Under the pieces are notes generated by a model. It was not told the DNA's origin, did no database searches, and saw only the letters and a program-made list of their open reading frames with translations. Position numbers and translations under genes: made by a program. From the IMG/VR virus record IMGVR_UViG_2563366803_000003: a stretch of DNA of 17,828 nucleotides. One strand, given 5' to 3'. The DNA comes from a virus. Taxonomy: Duplodnaviria > Heunggongvirae > Uroviricota > Caudoviricetes. This document shows positions 2,962 through 16,978 of this stretch, one piece after another (positions within the stretch are counted from its first letter, which is position 1; the number at the start of each line of letters is the position of its first letter).

Positions 2962-3211
2962 GGTTACCTCTGCTTTTTGAACGCATGTCACGTAACTTCT
3001 TAATGTGTTCTGCCGTTTCGATCTCTTCTGCTATCCGATCTGCATCAGCTTTATTCACAGGTTCAAAGTCATGATTAAAGCGGAACATGCTGGCGATACA
3101 TGTTCTGCCTTTTCGGATGTAGTGAACTTTGTTGTGGGTAGAACGCAGGATTTTGCAGGGAGTGCCGTGGTGGTCGACGTACCAGGTGTTAGGAAAAATG
3201 ATTCTGAACAT
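2933..3211 (-). CDS. Small Cys/His-containing phage protein (92 aa), possibly lambda Ea8.5-like by size and position next to xis
   Basis: ORF with GAGGTG SD 6 nt upstream of ATG at 3211; contains HH..C...H..H...C pattern; lambda Ea8.5 is 93 aa and lies next to xis. Confidence 0.4.
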   Translation of the reverse strand: MFRIIFPNTWYVDHHGTPCKILRSTHNKVHYIRKGRTCIASMFRFNHDFEPVNKADADRIAEEIETAEHIKKLRDMRSKSRGNHGIIQPHTR

Positions 3212-3258
3212 TTTTACACCTCAGTTGGACGATGTTGAAATTTGCTGCTTTGAGGCCA

Positions 3259-3477
3259 TCACAGTCCCCATTGTTTGTTCTTAAGTTCGATCTCCTCCTG
3301 GCAACTTGCACAAGTCCGACAACCCTGAACAGCCAGGCGTCTTCGCTCATCTATCGGATCGCCACACTCACAACAATGAGTTGCGGATACAGTCTGGTAG
3401 TTCTGACGACGCATTTTTATTGCTGTATTGCGCTGTAATTCTTCGATTTCTGATGCTGAATCAATGATGTCTGCCAT
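3259..3477 (-). CDS. TraR/DksA-family C4 zinc-finger protein (72 aa)
   Basis: CxxC-x17-CxxC signature (CCECGDPIDERRRLAVQGCRTCASC) typical of phage TraR/DksA-like proteins. Confidence 0.65.
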   Translation of the reverse strand: MADIIDSASEIEELQRNTAIKMRRQNYQTVSATHCCECGDPIDERRRLAVQGCRTCASCQEEIELKNKQWGL

Positions 3478-3529
3478 CTTCCATTAATCCCTGAATTGTT
3501 GGTTAATACGCTTGAGGATGAATGCGAAT

Positions 3530-3556
3530 AATAAAAAAGGAGCCTGTAGCTCCCTG
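3530..3556 (-). terminator. Possible rho-independent terminator (short GC stem ggagc/gctcc followed by T6 on minus strand)
   Basis: Hairpin 3539-3553 with A-tract 3533-3538 on + strand (= T-tract on minus), 20 nt downstream of the 3576 stop. Confidence 0.35.
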
Positions 3557-3575
3557 ATGATTTTGCTTTTCATGT

Positions 3576-3857
3576 TCATCGCTCCTTAAAGACGCCGTTT
3601 AACATGCCGATCGCCAGACTTAAATGAGTCGGTGTGAATCCCATCAGCGTTACCGTTTCGCGGTGCTTCTTCAGTACGCTACGGCAAATGTCATCGACGT
3701 TTTTATCCGGAAACTGCTGTCTGGCTTTTTTGATTTCAGAGTTAGCCTGACGGGCAATGCTGCGAAGGGCGTTTTCTTGCTGAGGTGTCATTGAACAAGT
3801 CCCATGTCGGCAAGCATAAGCACACAGAATATGAAGCCCGCTGCCAGAAAAATGCAT
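3576..3857 (-). CDS. Hypothetical lambdoid b-region protein (93 aa; alternative start at 3791 gives 72 aa)
   Basis: ORF in the minus-strand early-left gene string between xis and exo; no recognisable motif. Confidence 0.4.
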   Translation of the reverse strand: MHFSGSGLHILCAYACRHGTCSMTPQQENALRSIARQANSEIKKARQQFPDKNVDDICRSVLKKHRETVTLMGFTPTHLSLAIGMLNGVFKER

Positions 3858-3867
3858 TCAGTGGTTG

Positions 3868-4059
3868 TCATACCTGGTCTCTCTCATCTGCTTCTGCTTT
3901 CGCCACCATCATTTCCAGCTTTTGTGAAAAGGATGCGGCTAACGTATGAAATTCTTCGTCTGTTTCTACTGGTATTGGCACAAACCTGACTCCAATTTGA
4001 GCGAGGCTATGTGCCATCTCGATACTCGTTCTTAACTCAACGGGAGATGCTTTGTGCAT
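3868..4059 (-). CDS. Small lambdoid early protein, 63 aa (lambda orf63-like by size and position)
   Basis: GGGAG SD upstream of ATG at 4059; same orientation and tight packing with exo-proximal genes. Confidence 0.45.
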   Translation of the reverse strand: MHKASPVELRTSIEMAHSLAQIGVRFVPIPVETDEEFHTLAASFSQKLEMMVAKAEADERDQV

Positions 4060-4220
4060 ACAGCTCCCCGTTTATTATTTATCTCCTCAGCCAGCCGCTG
4101 TGCTTTCAGTGGATTTCTGATAACAGAAAGGCCGGGAAATACCCAGCCTCGCTTTGTAATGGAGTAGACGAAAGTGATCGCGCCTACCCGGATATTATCG
4201 TGAGGATGCGTCATCGCCAT
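4032..4220 (-). CDS. Small lambdoid early protein, 62 aa (lambda orf60a-like by position immediately upstream of exo)
   Basis: ORF overlapping exo start region; GGGGAG upstream of ATG at 4220. Confidence 0.45.
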
Positions 4221-4891
4221 TGCTCCCCAAATACAAAACCAATTTCAGCCAGTGCCTCGTCCATTTTTTCGATGAACTCCGGCACCATCTCGTCAAAACT
4301 CGCCATGTACTTTTCATTCCGCTCAATCACGACATAATGCAGGCCTTCACGCTTCATGCGCGGGTCATAGTTGGCAAAGTACCAGGCATCTTTTCGCGTC
4401 ACCCACATGCTGTACTGCACCTGGGCCATGTAAGCCGATTTTATTGCCTCGAAACCACCGAGCCGGAATTTCATGAAATCCCGGGAGGTAAACGGGCATT
4501 TCAGTTCAAGGCCGTTGCCGTCACTGCATAAACCATCGGGAGAGCAGGCGGTGCGCATACTTTCGTCGCGATAGATGATCGGGGATTCAGCAATATTCAC
4601 GCCGGAAGTGAATTCAAACAGGGTTCTGGCGTCGTTCTCGTACTGTTTTCCCCAGGCCAGCGCCTTAGCATTAACTTCCGGAGCCACACCGGTGCAAACC
4701 TCAGCCAGCAGGGTGTGGAAGTAGGACATTTTCATGTCAGGCCACTTCTTTCCTGAGCGGGGCTTTGCTATCACGTTGTGAACTTCTGAAGCGGTGATGA
4801 CGCCGAGCCGTAATTTGTGCCATGCATCATCCCCCTGTTCGACAGCTCTCACGTCGATCCCGGTACGCTGCAGGATAATGTCCGGTATCAT
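4211..4891 (-). CDS. exo: Lambda-type 5'-3' exonuclease Exo (Red-alpha), 226 aa
   Basis: Translation [65 protein letters not shown]... is near-identical to lambda Exo as recalled; same length. Confidence 0.95.
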
Positions 4892-5673
4892 GCTGCCACC
4901 TTCTGCTCAGTGGCTTTCTGTTTCAGGAATCCAAGAGCTTTCACTGCTTCGGCCTGTGTCATTTCTGACGATGCGCGAATGTCGCGGCGAAATATCTGGG
5001 AACAGAGCGGCAATAAGTCGTCATCCCATGTTTTATCCAGGGCGATCAGCAGAGTGTTAATCTCCTGCATGGTTTCATCGTTAACCGGAGTGATGTCGCG
5101 TTCTGGCTGACGTTCTGCAGTGTATGCAGTATTTTCGACAATGCGCTCGGCTTCATCCTTGTCATAGATACCAGCAAATCCGAAGGCCAGACGGGCACAC
5201 TGAATCATTGTTTTATGCCGTAACATCCGTTTGGGATGCGACTGCCACGGCCCCGTGATTTCTCTGCCTTCGCGGGTTTTGAATGGTTCGCGGCGGCATT
5301 CATCCATCCATTCGGTAACGCAGATCGGATGATTACGGTCCTTGCGGTAAATCCGGCATGTACAGGATTCATTGTCCTGCTCAAAGTCCATGCCATCAAA
5401 CTGCTGGTTTTCATTGATGATGCGGGACCAGCCATCAACGCCCACCACCGGAACAATGCCGTTCTGCTTATCAGGGAAGGCGTAAATTTCTTTCGTCCAC
5501 GGATTAAGGCCGTACTGGTTGGCGACGATCAACAATGCGATGAACTGCGCATCGCTGGCATCACCTTTAAATGCCGTCTGGCGAAGAGTGGTGATCAGTT
5601 CCTGTGGGTCGACAGAATCCATGCCGACACGTTCAGCCAGCTTCCCTGCCAGCGTTGCGAGTGCTGTACTCAT
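4888..5673 (-). CDS. bet: Lambda-type single-strand annealing protein Bet (Red-beta), 261 aa
   Basis: Translation [66 protein letters not shown]... matches lambda Bet; ATGA overlap with exo as in lambda. Confidence 0.95.
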
Positions 5674-5678
5674 CCGTT

Positions 5679-5975
5679 TTATACCTCTGAATCAATATCA
5701 ACCTGGTGGTGAGCAATGGTTTCAACCATGTACCGGATGTGTTCTGCCATGCGCTCCTGAAACTCAACATCGTCATCAAACGCACGGGTAATGGCTTTTT
5801 TGCTGGCCCCGCAGCGTTGCAAATGATCGATGCAGAGTGATTCAAACAGGTGCTGTGGAAGACCTTTTTCCATGTCGTCTGCCAGTTCTGACTCTTTCTC
5901 TTCACGGGCGATCTGCTGGTAGTGACGTGCCCAGCTCAGACCCTCAAGACGATCCTGAATGTAATAAGCGTTCAT
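5679..5975 (-). CDS. gam: Lambda Gam (RecBCD inhibitor), 98-aa GamS-length form
   Basis: Translation [56 protein letters not shown]... matches lambda Gam. Confidence 0.93.
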
Positions 5976-6050
5976 GGCTGAACTCCTGAAAATGGCTGTG
6001 AAAATATCGCCCGCGAAATGCCAGGCTGATTAGGAAAACAGGAAAGGGGA

Positions 6051-6257
6051 TTAGTGATTCAGGCCATTACCGCGTCCGTCGAAAAAAACTTCCACGAGCA
6101 AATCACGGGTATAAGTGCGCTCGATGCCGCGATGCAGATATAGCCGTCCGCGTAAATTAGCTGATGCAGTCCAGGTACCATCTTTGTGTTTGACCAGCAT
6201 TCCTGGCATGACCGCACCTCGATTAACGGTCTGCGTTCCGTAATGTTGATGAACCAT
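6051..6257 (-). CDS. Small early-left protein (68 aa from ATG at 6257 with AGGAG SD), possibly Kil-like host division inhibitor by position next to gam; in-frame upstream extension to 6461 is Arg-rich
   Basis: Strong SD (AGGAGTTTTT-ATG) at the internal start; first ORF downstream of the predicted pL; function assigned by synteny only. Confidence 0.4.
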
Positions 6258-6529
6258 AAAAACTCCTGCCCGTAAGCTGGGCTGCTGAACATATAGAGAC
6301 TTCTGCGCGTATTCAGGCGGTGGATGGCCGCCGGTTGTCATAACTAAGCCGCCTCGTTGAAGCGACTGAGGTATGAGGTGTTGAGTTGATTTCAGCTGGT
6401 CACACCGACGTTCACGCGTCCGTTTCACCCCTCGCACTCCCCGGAGCCTGCCGAAATTCAAGCTGCGGATCTAAGCGGTCATCGCAACGGTGAATCAGGT
6501 GGTTGCCGTATCGTTGTGTTGTTGCGACA

Positions 6530-6600
6530 TGGTGATAATAGCTATTGCTATTGGTGGTATCAATACTTATTGCTATTGATTGATGTGTTTTGATATTAAC
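6530..6600 (-). promoter_or_regulatory. Predicted pL/oL: minus-strand -35 TTGATA (+ coords 6558-6563) and -10 TATTAT (6535-6540) with 17-bp spacer, overlapped by repeated GCTATTG operator-like motifs
   Basis: Hexamers and spacing read directly; motif TTGCTATTG (6545-6553, 6570-6578) is shared with the cI-cro intergenic region. Confidence 0.4.
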
Positions 6601-6712
6601 TGTTTGATAGCAAAAAGAATTAATTTTGTGACTTGCATCGCATAGCGATAACTGAAGGGAGGTTGTGGTGGTTTTTCGAACGGTTTGTGTGATGAGGGGA
6701 GGGGACAAAAGA

Positions 6713-6745
6713 AAACCCGGCACGGTGGCCGGGACGTTTTATTTC
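6713..6745. terminator. Bidirectional rho-independent terminator (stem cccggc...gccggg, flanked by T-runs on both strands); likely end of the cI operon (tImm-like)
   Basis: aaaacccggcacggtggccgggacgttttatttc immediately after the stop of the 6739-7251 gene. Confidence 0.65.
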
Positions 6746-7251
6746 AAAGAAAAATTATGACTAGCGTATCTTGGAAGAAATTCATATAGTGTTAATGTCT
6801 TAACGCCGTGAGAAGCAGCAGCATCCGGGATCATTATTCTTTTTTTAGGTTTGCCACCGGATGGTTTCTCATGGGTAATAATAGTATATCCATGTGTCAT
6901 CGCATGGGCTATTAAAAAAGCATCTGCTTTTTCATGGCTTGCAAAATCAAACTTTGCCTTTTCGGTAACATCTAATTTAGTTGACCAATTTATTAACTTT
7001 GCATAATTTTCTATTGAACTATGCTCATCTTCGAAGAATGATGATGGTAACTCTTCTTTAATCCATTTACACAATGGATCATCTTTTGCACATAGTTCTT
7101 TTTTTACAGCATTAATGCTATAAATCAGACCATTCATGTGTAAAGCGAGAAGAAAATCCCAAAATATTTTGCAATAATTGAAGTTATATGCAAAGTTTTT
7201 TGCCTCTATGAAGACATTACTATCAATTAAGAATTTTCCATTATGAATCAT
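6739..7251 (-). CDS. DUF4411-type PIN-like putative nuclease (170 aa); candidate effector of a two-gene defense/toxin module
   Basis: Size, N-terminal FLIDSNVFI strand with conserved Asp and later acidic residues fit a PIN-like fold; ATGA start/stop overlap with upstream metallopeptidase gene; AT-rich composition. Confidence 0.6.
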   Translation of the reverse strand: MIHNGKFLIDSNVFIEAKNFAYNFNYCKIFWDFLLALHMNGLIYSINAVKKELCAKDDPLCKWIKEELPSSFFEDEHSSIENYAKLINWSTKLDVTEKAKFDFASHEKADAFLIAHAMTHGYTIITHEKPSGGKPKKRIMIPDAAASHGVKTLTLYEFLPRYASHNFSLK

Positions 7252-8387
7252 AGAGATTCTCGTTTTTTATAAAATTCAACAACTGTATCTGCTTTTACAT
7301 TTAGCAGTACGCCTGCTTCCCTTAATGGTAATTGTTGAGACATTGCTTTGGAAATTATTATATTCGTAAGTTTTGGACTGTTACGAACAGGTAATGTGTT
7401 AAAGAAAGAACCACCATTAGATTCTTTTTTGGGCTTATTGTAAGCTTGATCTTTAATTATCTCCAAAGTGTTTCTTTCTATCAAATCTAATTGTAACGCT
7501 TTGATTGCACAAGCGAAATCACTAACCTTAAATAACTTAGAAACCTCTTTTACTCGATAATAATTATTATCGCTGGATGCATTAAGCCAGAAAGATTTGA
7601 AGAGATTATCAGGCATTAAGATTTCAGCAGCAACTTTATTACAAAAAGATTCTATGTTTTTTTCTGTGTCCCACCCAGAGACTCCATCGACTCCAAGCCA
7701 AAGATGAGCCACCTCATGAAATAATGTAAATACCTGCGCAGATAACGCGTCCGAGCTATTTACAAAAATGATCGGAGCAACGCTATCAGATATACAGAAA
7801 CCACGAAACTCTCGCGTGTCAAGTTTTCTTTTATTATTATTACCCACAACACCATTCTTGAAAACTAATACGCCAGTGTCTTCTATTAGTTTTGCCACTT
7901 TAGAAAAATAGCTCTCAAAAGTGACATTTTTTATCTCTTTTTGTATATCAAAATGTATTGTGTTTGCTATGTCTGTAGCAACAACCTTATAATTTAATTT
8001 TCTATTAAATTTAAATTTACCAATAAAATCGAGTGGATCATCATTACCATTTTCTCTTAAATAGTCTTTGTACCACTCAAGTTTATATTCTATATCATAG
8101 TAAACATCAAAAAAATCTTTTCCTAACTCACGGCTATTTATAGCTTGCCTTAAGTCAGGGATCTTGGGTTTGGCTGGAGTTGGTGGCGTTTCAAGAAATA
8201 AAAAACCGAAAGGGATTCCTCCAATTTTTGCCAGTTTTTCTGCTGCGGATTTACTTACCACTCCGTTAAGAAATTTATTAATCTTTTTGGGCATGACTTG
8301 GTCAGCAAGAGTTTCGATAGAAACTCCTTGAGAATTTGCTATCCAATCAATCATCTTCCTAGACAATTGAAATTCAACCGCTGCCAT
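7248..8387 (-). CDS. HTH + ImmA/IrrE-family (COG2856/M78-like) zinc metallopeptidase, 379 aa
   Basis: HExxH motif in FTLFHEVAHLWLG; N-terminal HTH-like segment (IDWIANSQGVSIETLADQV); AGGTGA SD upstream of ATG at 8387; translationally coupled to DUF4411 gene. Confidence 0.7.
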   Translation of the reverse strand: MAAVEFQLSRKMIDWIANSQGVSIETLADQVMPKKINKFLNGVVSKSAAEKLAKIGGIPFGFLFLETPPTPAKPKIPDLRQAINSRELGKDFFDVYYDIEYKLEWYKDYLRENGNDDPLDFIGKFKFNRKLNYKVVATDIANTIHFDIQKEIKNVTFESYFSKVAKLIEDTGVLVFKNGVVGNNNKRKLDTREFRGFCISDSVAPIIFVNSSDALSAQVFTLFHEVAHLWLGVDGVSGWDTEKNIESFCNKVAAEILMPDNLFKSFWLNASSDNNYYRVKEVSKLFKVSDFACAIKALQLDLIERNTLEIIKDQAYNKPKKESNGGSFFNTLPVRNSPKLTNIIISKAMSQQLPLREAGVLLNVKADTVVEFYKKRESL

Positions 8388-8516
8388 GTTATCACCTAGT
8401 TAAAAAAAACTATTATTCAACAATTATTGTTGTGCACCTGATAGCTAACGTCAAGCCTAATTTATTGCCTTACTACAGTAAGCTGAAAAGCGAAGTGCAT
8501 AATTTTGTTCTGATTT

Positions 8517-9209
8517 CTACCCATGCTTTCTATATGTCTGCGGCATGCTCCCGATGACTTTCCCGAAGATGAACACGCGGTTCATCTCGTCTTTCTCGAT
8601 CGGGTCCCACGGTGAGTAGCTCTTGTTATCAGAGATAACCAGCAGCTTATCCTTCATCATTTGCAGGCGCTTTACATGGGCGGTGTCGTCATACAGAAAC
8701 GCATAGATACCATCACCGTCGAAAGATTTAACAGTGATATCAACGAACAGAAGATCACCTGGTTCGATCGTTCCTGACATGCTGTCACCGCGTACGTTAA
8801 TGATGCGGATATTTTCTGCCTTCCTGCCATCGAACATGTGACGAGCATCGTCAAACGAGTACTCAACCGAGCGTAGAACTTCTACAAACTCACGGTTGAT
8901 GACTCCCGGCCCGGCACTCACTTCTATATCAAGAACGTCAATCTTGAAGTATTTGGGATGGTTGGCAGTAGGCTTCCCTAATTGTTGACCGTCATTTCTC
9001 ATCGGGCCTATGCCTGATGAGAGCCACTCTGTTCGAACACCCAATGCATTAGCTATTTCAACAATTTTTGTTGAGCCGCGCGCGTTGCCGCTTGTCAGTC
9101 TCCAGATTGTGGGTTGAGCTACCCCAGACGCCTTTGCAAGAGCGCCTTGAGACATTCCAGATTGTTCCATCGCTAGGTTTAAGCGATCAGCAAGAGTTTC
9201 TTTTTTCAT
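8517..9209 (-). CDS. cI: cI-type prophage repressor (N-terminal XRE HTH + C-terminal S24/LexA-like autopeptidase), about 230 aa, leaderless
   Basis: HTH segment LADRLNLAMEQSGMSQGALAKASGVAQPTIWRL; S24 peptidase signature around GDSMSGTIEPGDLLFVD with downstream Lys (HVKRL); ATG at 9209 lies 7 nt after a -10 hexamer. Confidence 0.85.
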   Translation of the reverse strand: MKKETLADRLNLAMEQSGMSQGALAKASGVAQPTIWRLTSGNARGSTKIVEIANALGVRTEWLSSGIGPMRNDGQQLGKPTANHPKYFKIDVLDIEVSAGPGVINREFVEVLRSVEYSFDDARHMFDGRKAENIRIINVRGDSMSGTIEPGDLLFVDITVKSFDGDGIYAFLYDDTAHVKRLQMMKDKLLVISDNKSYSPWDPIEKDEMNRVFIFGKVIGSMPQTYRKHG

Positions 9210-9319
9210 AAGTTTTAATTTATACGCTTGCGTATTGATGGTCAAAACACGTTTTGCTATTGTTATGATTAATACGCATTGCTATTATTTATTCATTGCA
9301 ATACCAATAGGAATTGATA
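9210..9319. promoter_or_regulatory. Divergent immunity control region. Predicted pRM on minus strand (-35 TTGACC at + 9240-9245, -10 TAAATT at 9217-9222, leaderless cI) and pR on plus strand (-35 TTGTTA 9260-9265, -10 TATTAT 9283-9288); operator-like repeats TTGCTATT and palindromes
   Basis: Hexamers and 17-bp spacings read directly; motif shared with 6540-6580. Confidence 0.5.
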
Positions 9320-9547
9320 ATGACAAATCAAACCATTCAACTCGCAATCAGTATTACAGGTAGTCAAAAACGACTGGCAGATCTATGCGGTGTAGCCCAA
9401 CCCACTGTTTGGCGTTGGCTACACGGTGGCGGAATTGATGCCCGCTATGTAATGAAAATTGTCTCAGCCACTGGTGGAAAGATTAAACCAGCAGATATTC
9501 GTCCCGACCTCGCACCATTGTTTAACGCGAGTAATTCTGCCGCCTAA
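9320..9547 (+). CDS. cro: Cro-like HTH regulator of the YdaS family (about 75 aa)
   Basis: HTH segment GSQKRLADLCGVAQPTVWRWL; AGGAA SD 6 nt upstream of ATG 9320; divergent from cI. Confidence 0.7.
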   Translation: MTNQTIQLAISITGSQKRLADLCGVAQPTVWRWLHGGGIDARYVMKIVSATGGKIKPADIRPDLAPLFNASNSAA

Positions 9548-9571
9548 ACTGCGGCGTTAACTGATAAGGCA

Positions 9572-10117
9572 ATGACTATGCAACCACTTACATACCAACA
9601 GACTAGCGGATTTAGCCCGACTGTGGTGATAAATCGTTCTCAAACAAAACAAGCTCCAGGCCACGAAAAAATCCGTGATGCCGTCCGCGCCTGGTCGGCT
9701 GCAGATAATCAGGATGTTGTTGCCGCACTCATTGTGAATGAGTATCGGGAGCAGGGCGGCGGCACCATCGATTTCCCTGATGATGTCAGCCGTGCACGCC
9801 AGAAGCTGTTCCGCTTCCTCGATAACAAATTCGATTCTGAAAAATACCGAAATAACGTGCGTGAACTGACCCCGGCAATTCTGGCGGTACTACCGCTGGA
9901 ATATCGCGGTTACCTGGTTGAGCAGGATAGCTTTATGGCTAGGTTGGCTGAAATGGAAAAGGAACTCAGTGAGGCAAAACAGGCTGTCATTCTCAACGCA
10001 CCACGCCACCAGAAACTGAAGGAGATGAGTGAAGGCATTGTGTCGATGTTTCGAGTGGACCCGGATCTGGCTGGTCCATTGATGGCGATGGTCACCACCA
10101 TGCTGGGGGCAATATGA
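9572..10117 (+). CDS. YdaT-family protein (181 aa), occupying the cII position
   Basis: Recalled resemblance (..EYREQGGG.., ..LTPAILAVLP..) to Rac YdaT-type proteins; always paired with YdaS-type cro; position between cro and O. Confidence 0.5.
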   Translation: MTMQPLTYQQTSGFSPTVVINRSQTKQAPGHEKIRDAVRAWSAADNQDVVAALIVNEYREQGGGTIDFPDDVSRARQKLFRFLDNKFDSEKYRNNVRELTPAILAVLPLEYRGYLVEQDSFMARLAEMEKELSEAKQAVILNAPRHQKLKEMSEGIVSMFRVDPDLAGPLMAMVTTMLGAI

Positions 10118-10203
10118 CAGGTTCAAAAATGGCGAAAGTCGGTCTGCGGGAACAGAACCGACTTTCAGGTGCAAATCGTAACACACTCATTGCGGGAGGA
10201 ATT

Positions 10204-11133
10204 ATGGCAAACACTGCTGAGATATTCAATTTTCCAGTGCCGGATGCGGCACAAAAGGAGCCGCGCGTGGCAGATCTCGATGATGGTTATACGCGCATTG
10301 CAAATGAGTTGCTGGAAGCTGTGATGCTGGCCGGATTAACACAGCACCAGCTTCTGGTCTTCCTGGCTGTCATGCGCAAAACATATGGCTTTAATAAAAA
10401 ACTGGATTGGGTGAGCAACGAGCAACTTTCCGAGTTGACCGGGATATTGCCGCACAAGTGTTCTGCTGCAAAAAGTGTTCTGGTAAAGCGTGGGATTTTT
10501 ATTCAGAGCGGGCGGAATATCGGCATCAATAATGTGGTCAGTGAATGGTCAACATTACCCGAATCGGGTAAGAAAAATAAAGTTTACCTGAAAGAGGTAA
10601 ATTTACCTGAATCAGGTAAGAAAAGTTTACCTAAATCAGGTAAAGGCGTTTACCCGAATCAGGTAAACACAAAAGACAAACTAACAAAAGACAATATAAA
10701 ACCTTTATCGTCCGAGAATTCTGGCGAATCCTCTGACCAGCCAGAAAACGATCTTCCTGTGGTGAAACCGGATGCTGCAATTCAGAGCGGCAGCAAGTGG
10801 GGGACAGCAGAAGACCTGACCGCCGCAGAGTGGATGTTTGACATGGTGAAGACCATCGCGCCATCAGCCAGAAAACCGAATTTTGCAGGGTGGGCTAACG
10901 ATATCCGCCTGATGCGTGAACGTGATGGACGTAACCACCGCGACATGTGCGTGCTGTTCCGCTGGGCATGCCAGGACAACTTCTGGTCCGGTAACGTGCT
11001 GAGTCCGGCTAAACTCCGCGACAAGTGGACCCAGCTCGAAATCAACCGTAACAAGCAACAGGCTGGCGTGACAGCCAGAAAACCAAAACTCGACCTGACA
11101 AACACTGACTGGATTTACGGGGTGGATTTATGA
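10204..11133 (+). CDS. O: Lambda O-type replication initiator (about 309 aa from ATG 10204 with GGGAGG SD)
   Basis: N-terminus MANTAEIFNFP...VADLDDGYTRIANELLEAV...LLVFLAVMRKTYGFNK resembles lambda O N-terminal domain; internal iteron array. Confidence 0.85.
   Translation: MANTAEIFNFPVPDAAQKEPRVADLDDGYTRIANELLEAVMLAGLTQHQLLVFLAVMRKTYGFNKKLDWVSNEQLSELTGILPHKCSAAKSVLVKRGIFIQSGRNIGINNVVSEWSTLPESGKKNKVYLKEVNLPESGKKSLPKSGKGVYPNQVNTKDKLTKDNIKPLSSENSGESSDQPENDLPVVKPDAAIQSGSKWGTAEDLTAAEWMFDMVKTIAPSARKPNFAGWANDIRLMRERDGRNHRDMCVLFRWACQDNFWSGNVLSPAKLRDKWTQLEINRNKQQAGVTARKPKLDLTNTDWIYGVDL
10555..10710 (+). repeat. Phage origin of replication: five 17-bp palindromic iterons TTACC(C/T)GAATC(A/G)GGTAA (10555-10571, 10584-10600, 10603-10619, 10627-10643, 10649-10665) followed by an A-rich tract
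   Basis: Direct repeats read in sequence inside the O gene, as in ori-lambda. Confidence 0.8.
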
Positions 11134-11831
11134 AAAACATCGCCGCACAGATGGTTAACTTTGACCGTGAGCAGATGCGTCGGATCGCCAACAACATGCC
11201 GGAACAGTACGACGAAAAGCCGCAGGTACAGCAGGTAGCGCAGATCATCAACGGTGTGTTCAGCCAGTTACTGGCAACTTTCCCGGCGAGCCTGGCTAAC
11301 CGTGACCAGAATGAACTGAACGAAATCCGCCGCCAGTGGGTTCTGGCTTTCCGGGAAAACGGGATCACCACAATGGAACAGGTTAACGCTGGAATGCGCG
11401 TAGCCCGTCGGCAGAATCGACCATTCCTGCCATCACCCGGGCAGTTTGTCGCCTGGTGCCGGGAAGAAGCATCTGTTAACGCCGGGCTGCCAAACGTCAG
11501 CGAGCTGGTTGATATGGTTTACGAGTATTGCCGGAAGCGTGGCCTGTATCCGGATGCAGAGTCTTATCCGTGGAAATCGAACGCGCATTACTGGTTGGTT
11601 ACCAACTTGTACCAGAACATGCGGGCCAATGCGCTGACTGACGCGGAATTACGGCGCAAGGCTGCCGATGAACTGACCTGTATGACAGCGCGAATTAACC
11701 GTGGTGAGACGATACCTGAACCAGTAAAACAACTTCCTGTTATGGGCGGTAGACCTCTAAATCGTGCACAGGCTCTGGCGAAGATCGCAGAAATTAAAGC
11801 TAAGTTCGGACTGAAAGGAGCAATTGTATGA
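11130..11831 (+). CDS. P: Lambda P-type replication protein (DnaB helicase loader), 233 aa
   Basis: Translation MKNIAAQMVNFDREQMRRIANNMPEQYDEKPQVQQVAQIINGVFSQLLATFPASLANRDQNELNEIRRQW... matches lambda P; ATGA overlap with O. Confidence 0.95.
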   Translation: MKNIAAQMVNFDREQMRRIANNMPEQYDEKPQVQQVAQIINGVFSQLLATFPASLANRDQNELNEIRRQWVLAFRENGITTMEQVNAGMRVARRQNRPFLPSPGQFVAWCREEASVNAGLPNVSELVDMVYEYCRKRGLYPDAESYPWKSNAHYWLVTNLYQNMRANALTDAELRRKAADELTCMTARINRGETIPEPVKQLPVMGGRPLNRAQALAKIAEIKAKFGLKGAIV

Positions 11832-12130
11832 CGGGCAAAGAGGCAATTATTCATTACCTGGGGACGCATAAGAGCTTCTGTGCACAGGACGTTGCCGCGG
11901 TAACAGGCGCAACCGTAACCAGCATAAATCAGGCTGCGGCTAAAATGGCGCGGGCAGGAATCCTGGTCGTTGATGGTAAGGTCTGGCGAACGGTGTATTA
12001 CCGGTTCGCTACCAGAGAAGAACGGGAAGGAAAGGTGAGCACGAATCTGATTTTTAAGGAGTGTCGCCAGAGTGCCGCGATGAAACGGGTATTGAGGGTA
12101 TATAAAAGAACATCAATGGGAACACAATGA
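11828..12130 (+). CDS. ren: Ren (Rex exclusion-escape protein), 100 aa
   Basis: Translation MTGKEAIIHYLGTH.SFCA.DVAA.TGATVTSINQAAAKMARAG... matches lambda Ren; ATGA overlap with P. Confidence 0.9.
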   Translation: MTGKEAIIHYLGTHKSFCAQDVAAVTGATVTSINQAAAKMARAGILVVDGKVWRTVYYRFATREEREGKVSTNLIFKECRQSAAMKRVLRVYKRTSMGTQ

Positions 12131-12197: not shown

Positions 12198-12530
12198 ATG
12201 AACCCTTATATTTATCTTGGTGGTGCAATACTTGCAGAGGTCATTGGTACAACCTTAATGAAGTTTTCAGAAGGTTTTACACGGTTATGGCCATCTGTTG
12301 GTACAATTATTTGTTATTGTGCATCATTCTGGTTATTAGCTCAGACGCTGGCTTATATTCCTACAGGGATTGCTTATGCTATCTGGTCAGGAGTCGGTAT
12401 TGTCCTGATTAGTTTACTGTCATGGGGATTTTTCGGCCAACGGCTGGACCTGCCAGCCATTATAGGCATGATGTTGATTTGTGCCGGTGTGTTGGTTATT
12501 AATTTATTGTCACGAAGCACACCACATTAA
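12198..12530 (+). CDS. emrE: EmrE small multidrug-resistance efflux transporter, 110 aa (prophage moron)
   Basis: Translation MNPYIYLGGAILAEVIGTTLMKFSEGFTRLWPSVGTIICYCASFWLLAQTLAYIPTGIAYAIWSGVGIVLISLLSWGFFGQRLDLPAIIGMMLICAGVL... matches EmrE; AGGAAAG SD. Confidence 0.95.
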   Translation: MNPYIYLGGAILAEVIGTTLMKFSEGFTRLWPSVGTIICYCASFWLLAQTLAYIPTGIAYAIWSGVGIVLISLLSWGFFGQRLDLPAIIGMMLICAGVLVINLLSRSTPH

Positions 12531-12550
12531 AATAATTTGTTTCTAAACGA

Positions 12551-12590
12551 CTAAAATATGGAGGCTCTTATATTTATATGAGCCTCGTTT
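12551..12590 (+). terminator. Rho-independent terminator downstream of emrE (stem gaggctc...gagcctc followed by T-rich tract)
   Basis: Hairpin 12551-12576, T-run 12577-12590. Confidence 0.7.
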
Positions 12591-12784
12591 TATGCTTTTT
12601 GTTAATGTCTTTATTTTTTATGTATTCTTTTGTGCTTTCAAGATTATGGCGTAAGAAAATTGCAATACGATTATTGTTGTATATTCAAGATAATGTGACC
12701 TTAATTGTCTTTTTAAATAAAAATTAAACAAAAATTATATCCCACCACTAAGGTTTATAAAAGCATACGTTAGCAGGTGTCACC

Positions 12785-13624
12785 ATGAAAAAAGCCATAG
12801 CATATATGCGATTTTCATCACCAGGTCAGATGTCTGGTGACTCATTAAACCGACAGAGAAGACTTATTGCTGAATGGTTAAAGGTAAATAGTGATTATTA
12901 TCTTGATACCATAACATATGAAGATTTAGGATTAAGTGCATTCAAAGGAAAGCATGCACAATCAGGAGCTTTTTCGGAATTTTTAGATGCTATAGAGCAT
13001 GGTTATATATTGCCAGGAACTACATTGTTAGTTGAAAGTCTGGACAGACTTTCAAGAGAAAAAGTCGGTGAAGCGATTGAACGTCTGAAATTGATTTTGA
13101 ATCACGGTATTGATGTTATAACTCTTTGCGACAATACAGTCTATAATATTGACTCTTTGAATGAGCCATATTCATTAATAAAAGCCATACTTATAGCACA
13201 AAGGGCAAATGAAGAAAGCGAGATAAAGTCAAGTCGGGTTAAATTATCATGGAAGAAAAAACGGCAGGATGCAATGGAATCAGGTACGATTATGACGGCG
13301 TCTTGTCCGAGATGGCTCTCCTTAGATGACAAAAGAACGGCTTTTGTTCCAGACCCCGACAGGGTGAAAACTATTGAGCTAATTTTTAAACTCAGGATGG
13401 AAAGGCGCTCATTGAATGCAATAGCCAAGTATTTAAATGATCATGCTGTAAAGAATTTCTCAGGAAAAGAAAGTGCATGGGGACCTTCTGTAATTGAAAA
13501 ATTATTAGCGAATAAAGCTCTGATAGGTATATGCGTACCTTCATATCGTGCAAGAGGGAAAGGGATAAGTGAAATCGCTGGCTATTATCCCAGAGTTATA
13601 TCAGATGATTTGTTTTACGCTGTA
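12785..13624 (+). pseudogene. ybcK: ybcK-like serine recombinase, truncated after about 280 codons by IS1
   Basis: N-terminal resolvase-type catalytic domain (AIAYMRFSSPGQMSGDSLNRQRR... with catalytic Ser), reading frame runs into IS1 left terminus at 13625. Confidence 0.8.
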
Positions 13625-13639
13625 GGTAATGACTCCAAC

Positions 13640-14143
13640 TTATTGATAGTGTTTTATGTTCAGATAATGCCCGATGACTTTGTCATGCAGCTCCACCGAT
13701 TTTGAAAACGACAGCGACTTCCGTCCCAGCCGTGCCAGGTGCTGCCTCAGATTCAGGTTATGCCGCTCAATTCGCTGCGTATATCGCTTGCTGATTACGT
13801 GCAGCTTTCCCTTCAGGCGGGATTCATACAGCGGCCAGCCATCCGTCATCCATATCACCACGTCAAAGGGTGACAGCAGGCTCATAAGACGCCCCAGCGT
13901 CGCCATAGTGCGTTCACCGAATACGTGCGCAACAACCGTCTTCCGGAGACTGTCATACGCGTAAAACAGCCAGCGCTGGCGCGATTTAGCCCCGACATAG
14001 CCCCACTGTTCGTCCATTTCCGCGCAGACGATGACGTCACTGCCCGGCTGTATGCGCGAGGTTACCGACTGCGGCCTGAGTTTTTTAAGTGACGTAAAAT
14101 CGTGTTGAGGCCAACGCCCATAATGCGGGCTGTTGCCCGGCAT
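13640..14143 (-). CDS. insB: IS1 InsB (the longer 194-aa ORF in the track is the out-of-frame upstream extension used for InsAB' frameshifting)
   Basis: Same frame and sequence as copy A InsB, with one amino-acid difference (H vs R). Confidence 0.93.
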
Positions 14144-14337
14144 CCAACGCCATTCATGGCCATATCTATGATTTTCTGGTGCGTACCGGGTTGAGAAGCG
14201 GTGTAAGTGAACTGCAGTTGCCATGTTTTACGGCAGTGAGAGCAGAGATAGCGCTGATGTCCGGCGGTGCTTTTGCCGTTACGCACCACCCCGTCAGTAG
14301 CTGAACAGGAGGGACAGCTGATAGAAACAGAAGCCAC
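14062..14337 (-). CDS. insA: IS1 InsA
   Basis: Identical protein to copy A InsA. Confidence 0.95.
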
Positions 14338-14392
14338 TGGAGCACCTCAAAAACACCATCATACACTAAATCAGTAAGTTGGCAGCATCACC

Positions 14393-14512
14393 CTCACTAA
14401 AGCAGGTTTCTGGCTGGATGATGCTCAGGTCGTTGATTACCGCGTTGTGAAGATGCCTGTTACCAAAGGTGGGAGGCTGGAACTGACCATCACCGAAATG
14501 GGGAATGAATGA
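14393..14512 (+). pseudogene. rusA: 3' fragment (last 39 codons) of rusA Holliday-junction resolvase, fused directly to the IS1 terminus
   Basis: Translation [39 protein letters not shown] equals the RusA C-terminus as recalled; no start codon or N-terminal part. Confidence 0.8.
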
Positions 14513-15306: not shown

Positions 15307-16389
15307 TTAGAACTGGTAAACCATACCTACAGCAACGATATCATCGGTAGCAACGCCAGATGCTTTCGTGAAATCGCTCTTATCAATCAGGTTGATTTTG
15401 TAGTCAACAAAAGTGGACATATTTTTGTTGAAGTAATAGGTTGCACCTACATCAACATATTCAACCAGGTCCTGATCACCCCAAACACCCAAGTCTTTTC
15501 CTTTAGAATGCAGGTAAGCAACGGATGGACGCAGGCCGAAGTCGAACTGATATTGTGCAACAGCTTCGAAGTTTTGTGCTTTGTTGGCAATATGGTTATT
15601 ACCAAAAACAGTCATGTTCTGGGTTTCAGAATAGGTGGTGGCCAGATAGATGTTGTTCGCATCATATTTCAGACCAGCTGCCCATACTTCAGCATTTTGA
15701 CCAGAAGCATTCAGACCGTTGTTACCGTAGATAACCTGATTATTAGTGCGATCAGATTTAGCATAGGTTGCACCTACACCGAATCCTTCATACTCATAAG
15801 TAGTGGAGAAACCGAAACCATCACCATTAGCTTCAGTTACGTCAGTGCGGTCATTTTTACCCTGATACTGAGCAGCAAAGTTCAGACCATCAACCAGACC
15901 AAAGAAGTCGTTGTTACGATAAGTTGCAACACCAGTGGTGCGACCAGTCATGAACACATCTGTTTGAGTCCAAGTGTCACCACCGAATTCTGGCAGGACG
16001 TCAGTCCACGCACCGATGTCGTATGCTACACCGTAGTTACGGCCGTAATCGATGGAGCCGTAGTCACCGAATTTCAGGCCAGCGAAGGCAAGACGGGTTT
16101 TATCTTTGGAGGAACCTTGAGATTCAGCGCGGTTGCCTTTGAATTCATATTCCCACTGACCGAAACCAGTCAGTTGATCGTTGATTTGGGTTTCACCTTT
16201 GAAGCCAAGACGGGCATAAGTAGTATCACCATCATCTGCATCATTAGAGGAGAAGTAGTGCTTAGCATTAACTTTCCCGTACAGATCCAGCTTGTTACTG
16301 TCTTTATTATAAATTTCAGCTGCCTGAGCAGACATCGCCATCAGTACTGATGCAGCTACAGCAGAAATTGCCACTGTTAATTTTTTCAT
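15307..16389 (-). CDS. nmpC: Outer-membrane general porin of the NmpC/OmpD/OmpC family, intact (360 aa with signal peptide)
   Basis: Signal peptide [23 protein letters not shown], beta-barrel porin sequence ending ...VGMVYQF; opposite orientation to the phage late genes (moron). Confidence 0.9.
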
Positions 16390-16978
16390 CGTGAGCCCTT
16401 TTTTTTGAACTATTATTAAAAAATGATGTCACTGCGCGATAAATATTCATCTAATCAATGTGATTATTTCAAGATGTAAGTTTTAGTTTCTCATTTAATT
16501 TGTGAAGTAGATCTCTATTTTTATCTGAACTTTTTCTATCGAAACCTATTTATGGCTCTTATTTGAACAAAAATAAACCTATTAGCTAATTTATATTAAT
16601 GGCTGTTATTTATGGGGGGGTCTATAATTCGATGGTTTAATTTAAATTAACTAAAAATAACGCCGGAAATTATTTATTGGTTATTTGTTGAGGTTTTCTT
16701 ATGTATTTGTGGTGGTGTTTTGAACACTCGGTAGCATTCTCATAAATATCATTCAGTGGTTTACGTACGTAAAAAATTGGTTATGCTGTTAAGAGTGGTT
16801 ACTTCGTCACACAGCTTAAACCCGCCGTCGAGCTGGTTTTTCCATTTTTTGAGTCTCGATATTAGCTGATAACTCAATACCTGAGTTATTCACTGACTCC
16901 GAGTCTGTTACGTTTCTGCTTTTTTGCGATACGTTGTATTCCCTCAATTTACACCCGCTTTGTCTGCGAGGTGGGGTT

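Follow-up and report, generated by a model that had tools for sequence, protein, structure and literature searches.

The question raised by this locus is what kind of element occupies the AT-rich stretch between the cI repressor gene and the pL promoter of a lambdoid prophage, and what it could do for the lysogen. The stretch of DNA that was analyzed, referred to here as the window, is the 17,828-nucleotide IMG/VR record IMGVR_UViG_2563366803_000003, and the element in question (positions 6735-8516) carries two genes on the minus strand. The upstream gene encodes a 379-residue protein with a helix-turn-helix (HTH) domain and an M78 (ImmA/IrrE) peptidase domain, and the downstream gene encodes a 170-residue DUF4411 protein. 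Our reading, to which we give a probability of about 0.72, is that the element is a moron, exchanged horizontally and located in the rexAB-equivalent slot of a lambdoid prophage integrated at argU, and that it encodes a two-gene toxin-antitoxin (TA) module resembling VapBC52 and RosmerTA. By analogy, its most likely role would be that of a lysogen-expressed toxin-antitoxin or abortive-infection module.

The limits of the element were defined by homology. At 97% identity, Lambda_4C10 and Perceval match 2982-6734 and 8517-12016 of the window, and they share nothing with it in between. Five of five comparators, with four different slot contents among them, share one pair of homology breakpoints, 6734 and 8517; in the comparator records L002, L003, L085, and L086 the match ends at 6733 or 6734 and restarts at 8517. 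The left break lies directly past the hairpin CCCGGCACGGTGGCCGGGA, and the right break is the stop codon of cI. The hairpin was found by a terminator scan of both strands at 6716-6733 (CCCGGCCACCGTGCCGGG followed by TTTTCTTTTG on the minus strand), has T-runs on both strands, and is located 5 nt past the stop codon of the DUF4411 gene. Because the hairpin and its minus-strand T-run are common to all comparators despite their differing cargo, the terminator belongs to the conserved backbone and ends the leftward cI/cargo transcripts whichever cargo is present. The region of 1782 bp between the cI stop codon and this shared terminator upstream of oL/pL is thus an exchangeable accessory cassette on the minus strand, and the comparisons support its placement in the slot that rexAB occupies downstream of cI in lambda (PMC12315714).

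A first-pass annotation of the window had placed the cassette between cI and pL, and operator-like repeats bear this out. Repeat and motif searches identified two 24-nt copies of an oL-like operator repeat, 25 nt apart and each containing TTGCTATTG, at 6530-6578 on the left side of the cassette. This motif has three matches in the window (at 6545, 6570, and 9254 only) versus 0.23 expected by chance, and the third copy, between cI and cro, corresponds to oR. A promoter scan gave a pL-like promoter on the minus strand (6563-6535) that overlaps the operator repeats and faces kil, gam, bet, and exo. The other landmarks of the same annotation were also found: gam, bet, and exo to the left of the cassette, the end of cI at 8517 with cro-like, O, and P genes to the right of it, and the argU site, where tRNA-Arg(TCT) (1479-1555) is followed by intD.

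The composition of the cassette differs clearly from that of the flanking genes. Its GC content is 33.3%, versus 46.5% in the remaining window, 50.6% in the 2 kb on the left, and 47.9% in the 2 kb on the right. In 400-bp windows the GC fraction falls to 0.305-0.352 over 6801-8400 and is about 0.50 on either side, and the 1782-bp block with the lowest GC in the entire window begins at 6741. At third codon positions, the two cargo genes have GC fractions of 0.246 and 0.261, versus 0.51-0.62 in exo, bet, gam, cI, O, and P. Codons ending in A or T account for 74% in the cargo genes and 46% in the flanking phage genes (chi-square p = 2e-31), and rare codons for 8.9% and 6.3%, respectively (p = 0.036). 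The encoded proteins, described previously as rich in Lys, Asn, and Ile, contain 35.5% Lys, Asn, Ile, Phe, and Tyr residues in total versus 23.4% in the flanking proteins. A likelihood fit with two change points placed the breaks at 6536 and 8535 (log-likelihood ratio 71.8, versus at most 6.2 in 20 shuffles). The sharp boundaries claimed at first pass stand in part. On the right, the compositional edge is sharp and no more than 20 bp away from the cI stop codon, and the homology breaks at 6734 and 8517 are sharp, but on the left the compositional edge is blurred by the operator/pL block (6535-6634), which lies outside the cassette and yet has 26% GC itself. A GC-rich terminator segment (6635-6734) stands between that block and the cargo.

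Low GC is a property of the whole class of cargo. All cargo variants of the slot are similarly AT-rich (33-36% GC), and the same M78/DUF4411 pair in other Enterobacterales prophages has 36-37% GC. The AT-richness thus characterizes a pool of mobile cargo and not a single recent import from a donor of low GC. The cassette is the largest low-GC block of the window, though not the sole one. Other AT-rich blocks are found at 12400-13200 (GC 0.31-0.35 around emrE, ylcJ, and ybcK), at 16200-16800 (GC 0.28, upstream of the porin gene at 15307-16389), and at 800-1400 (GC about 0.38-0.41 over fimZ).

Horizontal acquisition is supported by what occupies the slot in related phages. Between the same flanks, at least ten cargo types and a deletion scar were found. 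One of them is an ASCH-domain protein with a 353-residue protein, which matches the PADLOC candidate PDC-M11 (E = 3e-133 and 7e-52) and is annotated as GevT/GevA in phage PhiR47_2; a literature search did not find the origin of the GevT/GevA annotation in the PhiR phages. The others include a HipA-family kinase with DUF3037, MqsA with SecB, a Ser/Thr kinase with a hypothetical protein, a 'LAPAL-motif' protein, DUF7946, DUF6932, a BamE-like lipoprotein, and a transmembrane protein with a 340-residue protein (in Perceval). Very commonly, the slot holds a 120-bp filler alone, as in phage PhiR34_1 (L086, 634-753) and in many E. coli genomes whose match is 906 bp long. The PhiR34_1 slot was considered as a naive attachment site and rejected as such, since in the filler the left end of the PDC-M11/'GevTA' cassette is joined to its right end, so that it is the deletion scar of another cassette. 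This structure indicates that cargo is lost through internal deletion and not by precise excision.

The cassette itself is carried by 33 of 5426 complete E. coli genomes, IAI1 among them, that is, by 33 of the approximately 2200 E. coli genomes that have the same left flank. Among INPHARED phage records, none contains the cassette and the flanks alone match. The discrete junctions, the replacement in collinear sister phages, and this sporadic occurrence agree with the earlier proposal of a horizontally acquired moron. In PapRG-06-3 an identical cassette is present in a prophage that adjoins icd instead of argU, and in one genome (H74) the cassette lies beside a cI with a different N-terminal half. 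These two copies indicate that the cassette and the immunity region recombine between backbones. In prophages of other genera, the pair is found at 60-80% identity a short way downstream of unrelated repressors. The gene orders are cI-S24, the pair, and an N-like gene in Rosenbergiella; cI, small genes, the pair, N, and a SieB-family gene in Providencia; and a repressor, the pair, and recE/recT in Rac-like prophages of Klebsiella. The pair is also present at another prophage position and, in Pasteurellaceae, at a chromosomal site outside phages.

The two genes of the cassette form a tightly coupled unit. The start codon of the DUF4411 gene overlaps the stop codon of the M78 gene (ATGA, 7248-7251). 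Eighty loci of DUF4411 relatives were fetched from Proteobacteria, Actinobacteria, Chloroflexi, Spirochaetes, Acidobacteria, Planctomycetes, Bacteroidetes, and Cyanobacteria, and 77 of them were testable (three were at contig ends). A gene for an M78 protein of about 380 residues was directly upstream of the DUF4411 gene in all 77, with an overlap of 1, 4, or 8 bp in most. Across these loci the GC content of the pair follows that of the host (r = 0.86), and it is on average 3 points below that of the flanks (p = 4e-5).

The 170-residue protein (6739-7251, minus strand; Pfam DUF4411, E = 1.1e-37; PHROGs phrog_11126) is a predicted PIN-like nuclease and a putative VapC52-like toxin. The AlphaFold2 model is confident, with a predicted local distance difference test (pLDDT) score of 88.8, and all of the top 25 matches of the model in a Foldseek search of the PDB were PIN toxins of the VapC type. 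Asp10, Glu52, Asp110, and Glu128 are invariant in 45 homologues. The protein is accordingly modeled as a PIN-fold toxin candidate with four invariant acidic residues. The combination of HTH-COG2856/DUF955 proteins with PIN toxins was predicted as a TA system in 2009 (PMC2701414), and that of HTH-DUF955 with DUF4411 specifically in 2017 (PMC5499597).

The 379-residue protein (7248-8387, minus strand) resembles VapB52 and has an N-terminal HTH, an M78 (ImmA/IrrE) zinc peptidase domain (Pfam Peptidase_M78, E = 1.2e-13), and a C-terminal helical domain. His224, Glu225, and His228 of the HExxH motif and Glu246 are invariant in 119 homologues. The AlphaFold2 model (pLDDT 88.3) consists of a helical bundle (residues 10-64), a low-confidence proline-rich linker (66-89), the peptidase core, and a helical domain (305-379). 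In Foldseek searches the core best matched CapP (7t5t, E = 1.9e-4) and also matched IrrE (3dti), and the N-terminal ~59 residues resembled XRE-type controller proteins. The PHROGs match is phrog_2439 (E = 3e-76), and the best PADLOC match, a weak one, is capP (E = 1e-14). A match to the NCBIfam spr1629 antitoxin (24.6 bits versus a cutoff of 335) was far below the threshold and was not used. From these sequence features, the protein is predicted to be antitoxin, sensor, and autoregulator in one. In E. coli ATCC 43886 and E2528-C1 the gene is interrupted by the insertion sequence IS1 at about codon 180, the target corresponding to window positions 7843-7851. The DUF4411 gene next to the split antitoxin gene is intact in both genomes, except for M39I, as noted for ATCC 43886 (L084, NZ_CP024256.1, 1346-3262).

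The cassette also appears to carry its own expression signals. The spacer of 129 bp between the cI stop codon and the antitoxin start codon contains a candidate promoter found by consensus scan (TTGACG-17 nt-AACAAT, 8426-8454, minus strand) and a Shine-Dalgarno sequence (AGGTG, 8393-8397, minus strand) 5 nt upstream of the ATG at 8387, which is kept in relatives. The -35 element, the AACAAT hexamer, and the Shine-Dalgarno sequence precede the pair in conserved form after this cI, after a different cI (Rosenbergiella; L089 and L090), and after DinI (L087 and L088), and this conservation in three upstream contexts indicates that the predicted promoter travels with the cassette. A perfect 15-bp palindrome (CAACAAT-T-ATTGTTG, 8418-8432), read directly from the sequence, overlaps the -10 element and is a possible operator for autoregulation by the HTH; since relatives keep the CAACAAT half alone, we infer this role with reserve. 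A terminator scan found none between cI and the cassette, so that read-through from pRM would be possible, as for rexAB. As judged from these signals, the cassette could be transcribed in a lysogen from its predicted promoter and by read-through from pRM, and the backbone terminator would stop the transcripts before oL/pL. A search of Rfam gave no RNA family in the region. The plus-strand open reading frames in the island (at most 55 residues) had no support and were treated as chance.

The closest characterized relative of the pair is VapBC52 (Rv2515c/Rv2514c) of Mycobacterium tuberculosis, which was described in June 2026 (PMC13273310). The same two families occur there in the same order, with an antitoxin of about 380-415 residues followed by a DUF4411 PIN toxin. 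The antitoxin likewise has an HTH, an IrrE/CapP-like M78 domain with HExxH and Glu, and a C-terminal helical domain, and the toxin likewise has an acidic tetrad. The antitoxin family profile matched 9vzy_A in the PDB (a 393-residue HTH protein, three chains) with E = 5e-23 over residues 10-334, and the toxin family profile matched 9vzy_D and 9vzz_A ('DUF4411 family protein'; 162 residues and six chains in 9vzy) with E = 1.3e-13. The chain ratio of 3:6 in 9vzy fits the 1:2 complex reported for VapBC52, and the two entries appear to fit the M. tuberculosis study. The link to VapBC52 is made by these sequence-profile matches and the published study (PMC13273310); the PDB set used for Foldseek comprised entries up to April 2026 and did not include 9vzy. 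On profile evidence, the cargo is a distant homologue of M. tuberculosis VapBC52.

According to the published study, one antitoxin binds two toxins, the N-terminal domain of the antitoxin holding the toxin dimer and the C-terminal domain occluding the active site, and the toxin VapC52 cleaves tRNA (PMC13273310). VapB52 is activated by single-stranded DNA (ssDNA) to cleave itself, and not a partner protein, at the junction of the N-terminal and middle domains near an 'FR motif'; a zinc-binding cysteine serves as the fourth zinc ligand and auto-inhibits the peptidase (PMC13273310). The zinc ligands align to His224, His228, and Glu246 of the 379-residue protein. The FR linker motif (Asp-Phe-Arg) aligns to Asp78-Leu79-Arg80 (codons 8148-8156), in which Asp78 and Arg80 are invariant and the Phe is replaced by Leu. 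The switch residue Cys229 of VapB52 aligns to Ser237 (codon 7677-7679), which is serine in at least 90% of the clade. The replacement of the switch cysteine by a conserved serine means that the activation mechanism may differ from that of VapB52. The module thus differs from VapBC52 in its LR instead of FR linker, in having Ser237 and not Cys, in being prophage cargo beside cI and not a chromosomal locus of a pathogen, and in its 33% GC.

Complex formation, trigger, substrate, and defence role are proposed here from VapBC52 and from the position of the cassette. The operon would be expressed in the lysogen from its own promoter and possibly also from pRM. As in VapBC52, the antitoxin would hold the PIN toxin dimer inactive, with its N-terminal domain bound to the toxin and its C-terminal domain occluding the active site, and it would probably repress its own promoter. 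ssDNA that results from damage to DNA or from the replication of an infecting phage would then activate the peptidase, which would cut its own linker between the N-terminal and middle domains, the equivalent site here being P-D78-L79-R80. The freed PIN nuclease would cleave tRNA, arrest translation, and abort the infection. The position of the module suggests that, like rexAB, it may benefit the lysogen by aborting the infection when other phages superinfect.

Several observations weigh against this reading. The homology to VapBC52 is distant, with E values of 8e-7 and 6e-6 in single-sequence comparisons. The loop of residues 229-245 in the 379-residue protein contains no Cys, so that the cysteine switch of VapB52 has no counterpart there. 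The support from catalogued RosmerTA systems is partial: 13 PADLOC models of RmrA match the 379-residue protein weakly (E = 6e-8 to 8e-4, 17-30 bits), most of them in the peptidase region only, and no PADLOC family, RmrT included, matches the 170-residue protein at E <= 0.01. A prophage-encoded ssDNA sensor should also be exposed when its own prophage is induced, an event that it must somehow tolerate. A strictly essential antitoxin would not tolerate the IS1 insertion found beside an intact toxin gene, unless the insertion is polar on the toxin gene or the N-terminal fragment still neutralizes the toxin, in which case the allele would be compatible with a toxic partner. Such a surviving natural allele with a disrupted antitoxin gene is informative on toxicity or polarity. 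Finally, over-expression of the toxin alone protected M. smegmatis from phage D29, and this protection was absent when VapB52 was co-expressed (PMC13273310), which leaves defence by an intact module unproven even for VapBC52.

The last of these points also belongs to the alternative that survives best, namely that the pair is an addiction or stabilization module without a meaningful anti-phage role, in which post-segregational killing penalizes loss or decay of the immunity region. The classical type II layout (overlapping genes, the HTH antitoxin first, and a palindrome over the -10 element) is what such a module would have. Classical TA types, such as HipA-family kinases and MqsA with SecB, are among the other cargo of the slot, and the intact VapBC52 module gave no protection from D29. 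Nevertheless, the slot readily loses its cargo, as the common 120-bp scars show, and the same IS1 allele that splits the antitoxin gene leaves the toxin gene intact. In addition, the invariant peptidase site and the conserved linker motif imply regulated release, which is not needed for simple addiction. We consider this alternative unlikely, though it is the strongest of the four.

In a further alternative, the pair would be a regulator of host physiology that responds to DNA damage or stress, of the IrrE/PprI-like or persistence type, and hence a fitness factor unrelated to phage. The resemblance of the core to IrrE and the fact that ssDNA is a general signal of DNA damage fit this idea. However, the window contains no IrrE-type target regulon or DdrO-like partner, and the other contents of the slot are defence-like and TA-like, including PDC-M11 with its match at E = 3e-133. 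The slot is also the rexAB position in lambda. Taken together, these points make a host stress regulator improbable.

The M78 protein could also be thought of as an ImmA-like anti-repressor protease that acts on the prophage repressor, which would make the cassette part of the lysis-lysogeny switch and not cargo. Proteases of the ImmA family cleave the XRE-type repressors of ICEBs1 (PMC2701414) and of Gram-positive phages (PMC10440598). The pair repeatedly adjoins a repressor gene, and the repressor beside it in the Rac-like prophage of Klebsiella is without an S24 domain. In the present prophage, however, cI has an S24 autopeptidase domain of its own, and sister phages with the same cI and operators do without the pair and hold unrelated cargo or a scar instead. 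The coupling of the M78 gene to DUF4411 in 77 of 77 testable loci, non-phage chromosomal sites included, and the self-cleavage of VapB52, which spares its partner, also point away from a protease for the repressor, and we regard this role as still more improbable than the preceding one. That the phage lineage has had this region from its ancestors, with local mutation or selection making it AT-rich, is already contradicted and highly improbable, for although the adjoining operator block (26% GC) and several other blocks of the window are AT-rich as well, the homology breaks sharply between flanks of 97% identity and is absent inside, the cassette is present in just 33 of about 2200 E. coli genomes with the same left flank, and other genera carry this pair with different repressors and elsewhere in the prophage.

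A bolder extension of the TA module reading is offered tentatively, as a possibility that we hold well below even odds. The enterobacterial prophage clade may be a mechanistically distinct variant of VapBC52, marked by Ser237 and the LR motif and perhaps released by a trigger other than generic ssDNA, and the slot with its at least ten cargos may be the lambdoid counterpart of the P2/P4 defence hotspots. If so, the trigger could be, for example, a protein or replication intermediate of the superinfecting phage, and the resident prophage could be induced without killing itself; the slot would then be a natural library of TA or defence-like systems.

The TA module reading places a recently characterized type of TA system in the classical rexAB slot of lambdoid prophages of E. 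coli, including the well-studied commensal IAI1. It would extend the current understanding and not overturn it; cargo of this kind is expected among phage accessory genes. The most useful by-products are the bounded slot with its cargo list and the Ser-for-Cys difference in the switch loop of the peptidase. The slot is precisely bounded, from the cI stop codon to the shared hairpin, and its alternative contents form a compact list of candidate lysogen-protecting systems.

Further features of the window concern the prophage around the cassette. The repressor gene (8517-9245, minus strand) is of the cI type, with an HTH (HTH_3) and an S24 autopeptidase domain (Pfam Peptidase_S24, 1.5e-18), and the cassette has its right junction at the stop codon of this gene. 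It was called mechanically from a TTG start, giving 242 residues; the RefSeq product has 230 residues, which corresponds to the ATG at 9209. A promoter-like match on the minus strand (9245-9217) overlaps the longer version. At the position of lambda cII (9572-10117), the window encodes a protein named in RefSeq as containing a 'toxin YdaT domain', and it is preceded by a 75-residue HTH protein (cro/YdaS-like). The early-right region is thus of the Rac/YdaS-YdaT type and not of the lambda cro-cII type.

A second variable slot (3612-4064) lies between a TraR-like gene and a DUF1317 gene upstream of exo and holds two small open reading frames. The PapRG-06-3 prophage, otherwise 97-99% identical, has a 1065-bp gene with a DGQHR domain in this slot (L001, 8577-9663). 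Two direct copies of IS1A (1-754 and 13640-14393) are 99.6% identical to each other. The second copy truncates a ybcK-like recombinase frame (12785-13705), and PapRG-06-3 has about 3.2 kb more at this point (L001, 19226-22455). Between the two copies lie fimZ, argU, intD, and all of the prophage's left and immunity half, and the copies could function as a composite transposon or provide a substrate for deletion.

Among known systems, the RosmerTA (RmrT/RmrA) anti-phage systems also have M78-peptidase antitoxins (Millman et al. 2022, bioRxiv 10.1101/2022.05.11.491447; Ernits et al. 2023, PMC10440598), and Ernits et al. note a pairing of the ImmA antitoxin node with PIN-like domains. The cassette resembles them in its M78/ImmA antitoxin, which often has an N-terminal HTH in RosmerTA, in the interchangeable toxins, and in its presence on phages; for RosmerTA, defence has been demonstrated, with narrow specificity. 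The two differ in that the RmrA models match the antitoxin weakly and in part (best E = 6e-8, 30 bits) and RmrT gives no match. By the available models, the cargo would be a sister branch of RosmerTA and not a catalogued RosmerTA system.

The core of the antitoxin also invites comparison with CapH/CapP of the CBASS anti-phage systems, as CapP is both its best structural match (7t5t) and its best PADLOC match. In CapH/CapP, and in ImmR/ImmA of the integrative and conjugative element (ICE) ICEBs1, a signal of the DNA-damage type activates the peptidase, which cleaves a separate HTH repressor and thereby switches on transcription. In the cassette, by contrast, a single protein combines HTH and peptidase, and its partner is a nuclease. 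Neither a CBASS operon (CD-NTase and effector) nor a separate CapH was found in the window or in an annotated identical locus, and the window contains no ICE.

In its position, the cassette is most similar to rexAB of lambda. Both lie directly downstream of cI and upstream of oL/pL, both end at a terminator, and the cassette, like rexAB, could be co-transcribed with cI in the lysogen. The proteins are unrelated, RexA and RexB being a sensor and an ion channel, and the cassette, unlike rexAB, has a conserved predicted promoter of its own. In being AT-rich, and present or absent among otherwise collinear phages, the cassette is like the morons of lambdoid phages.

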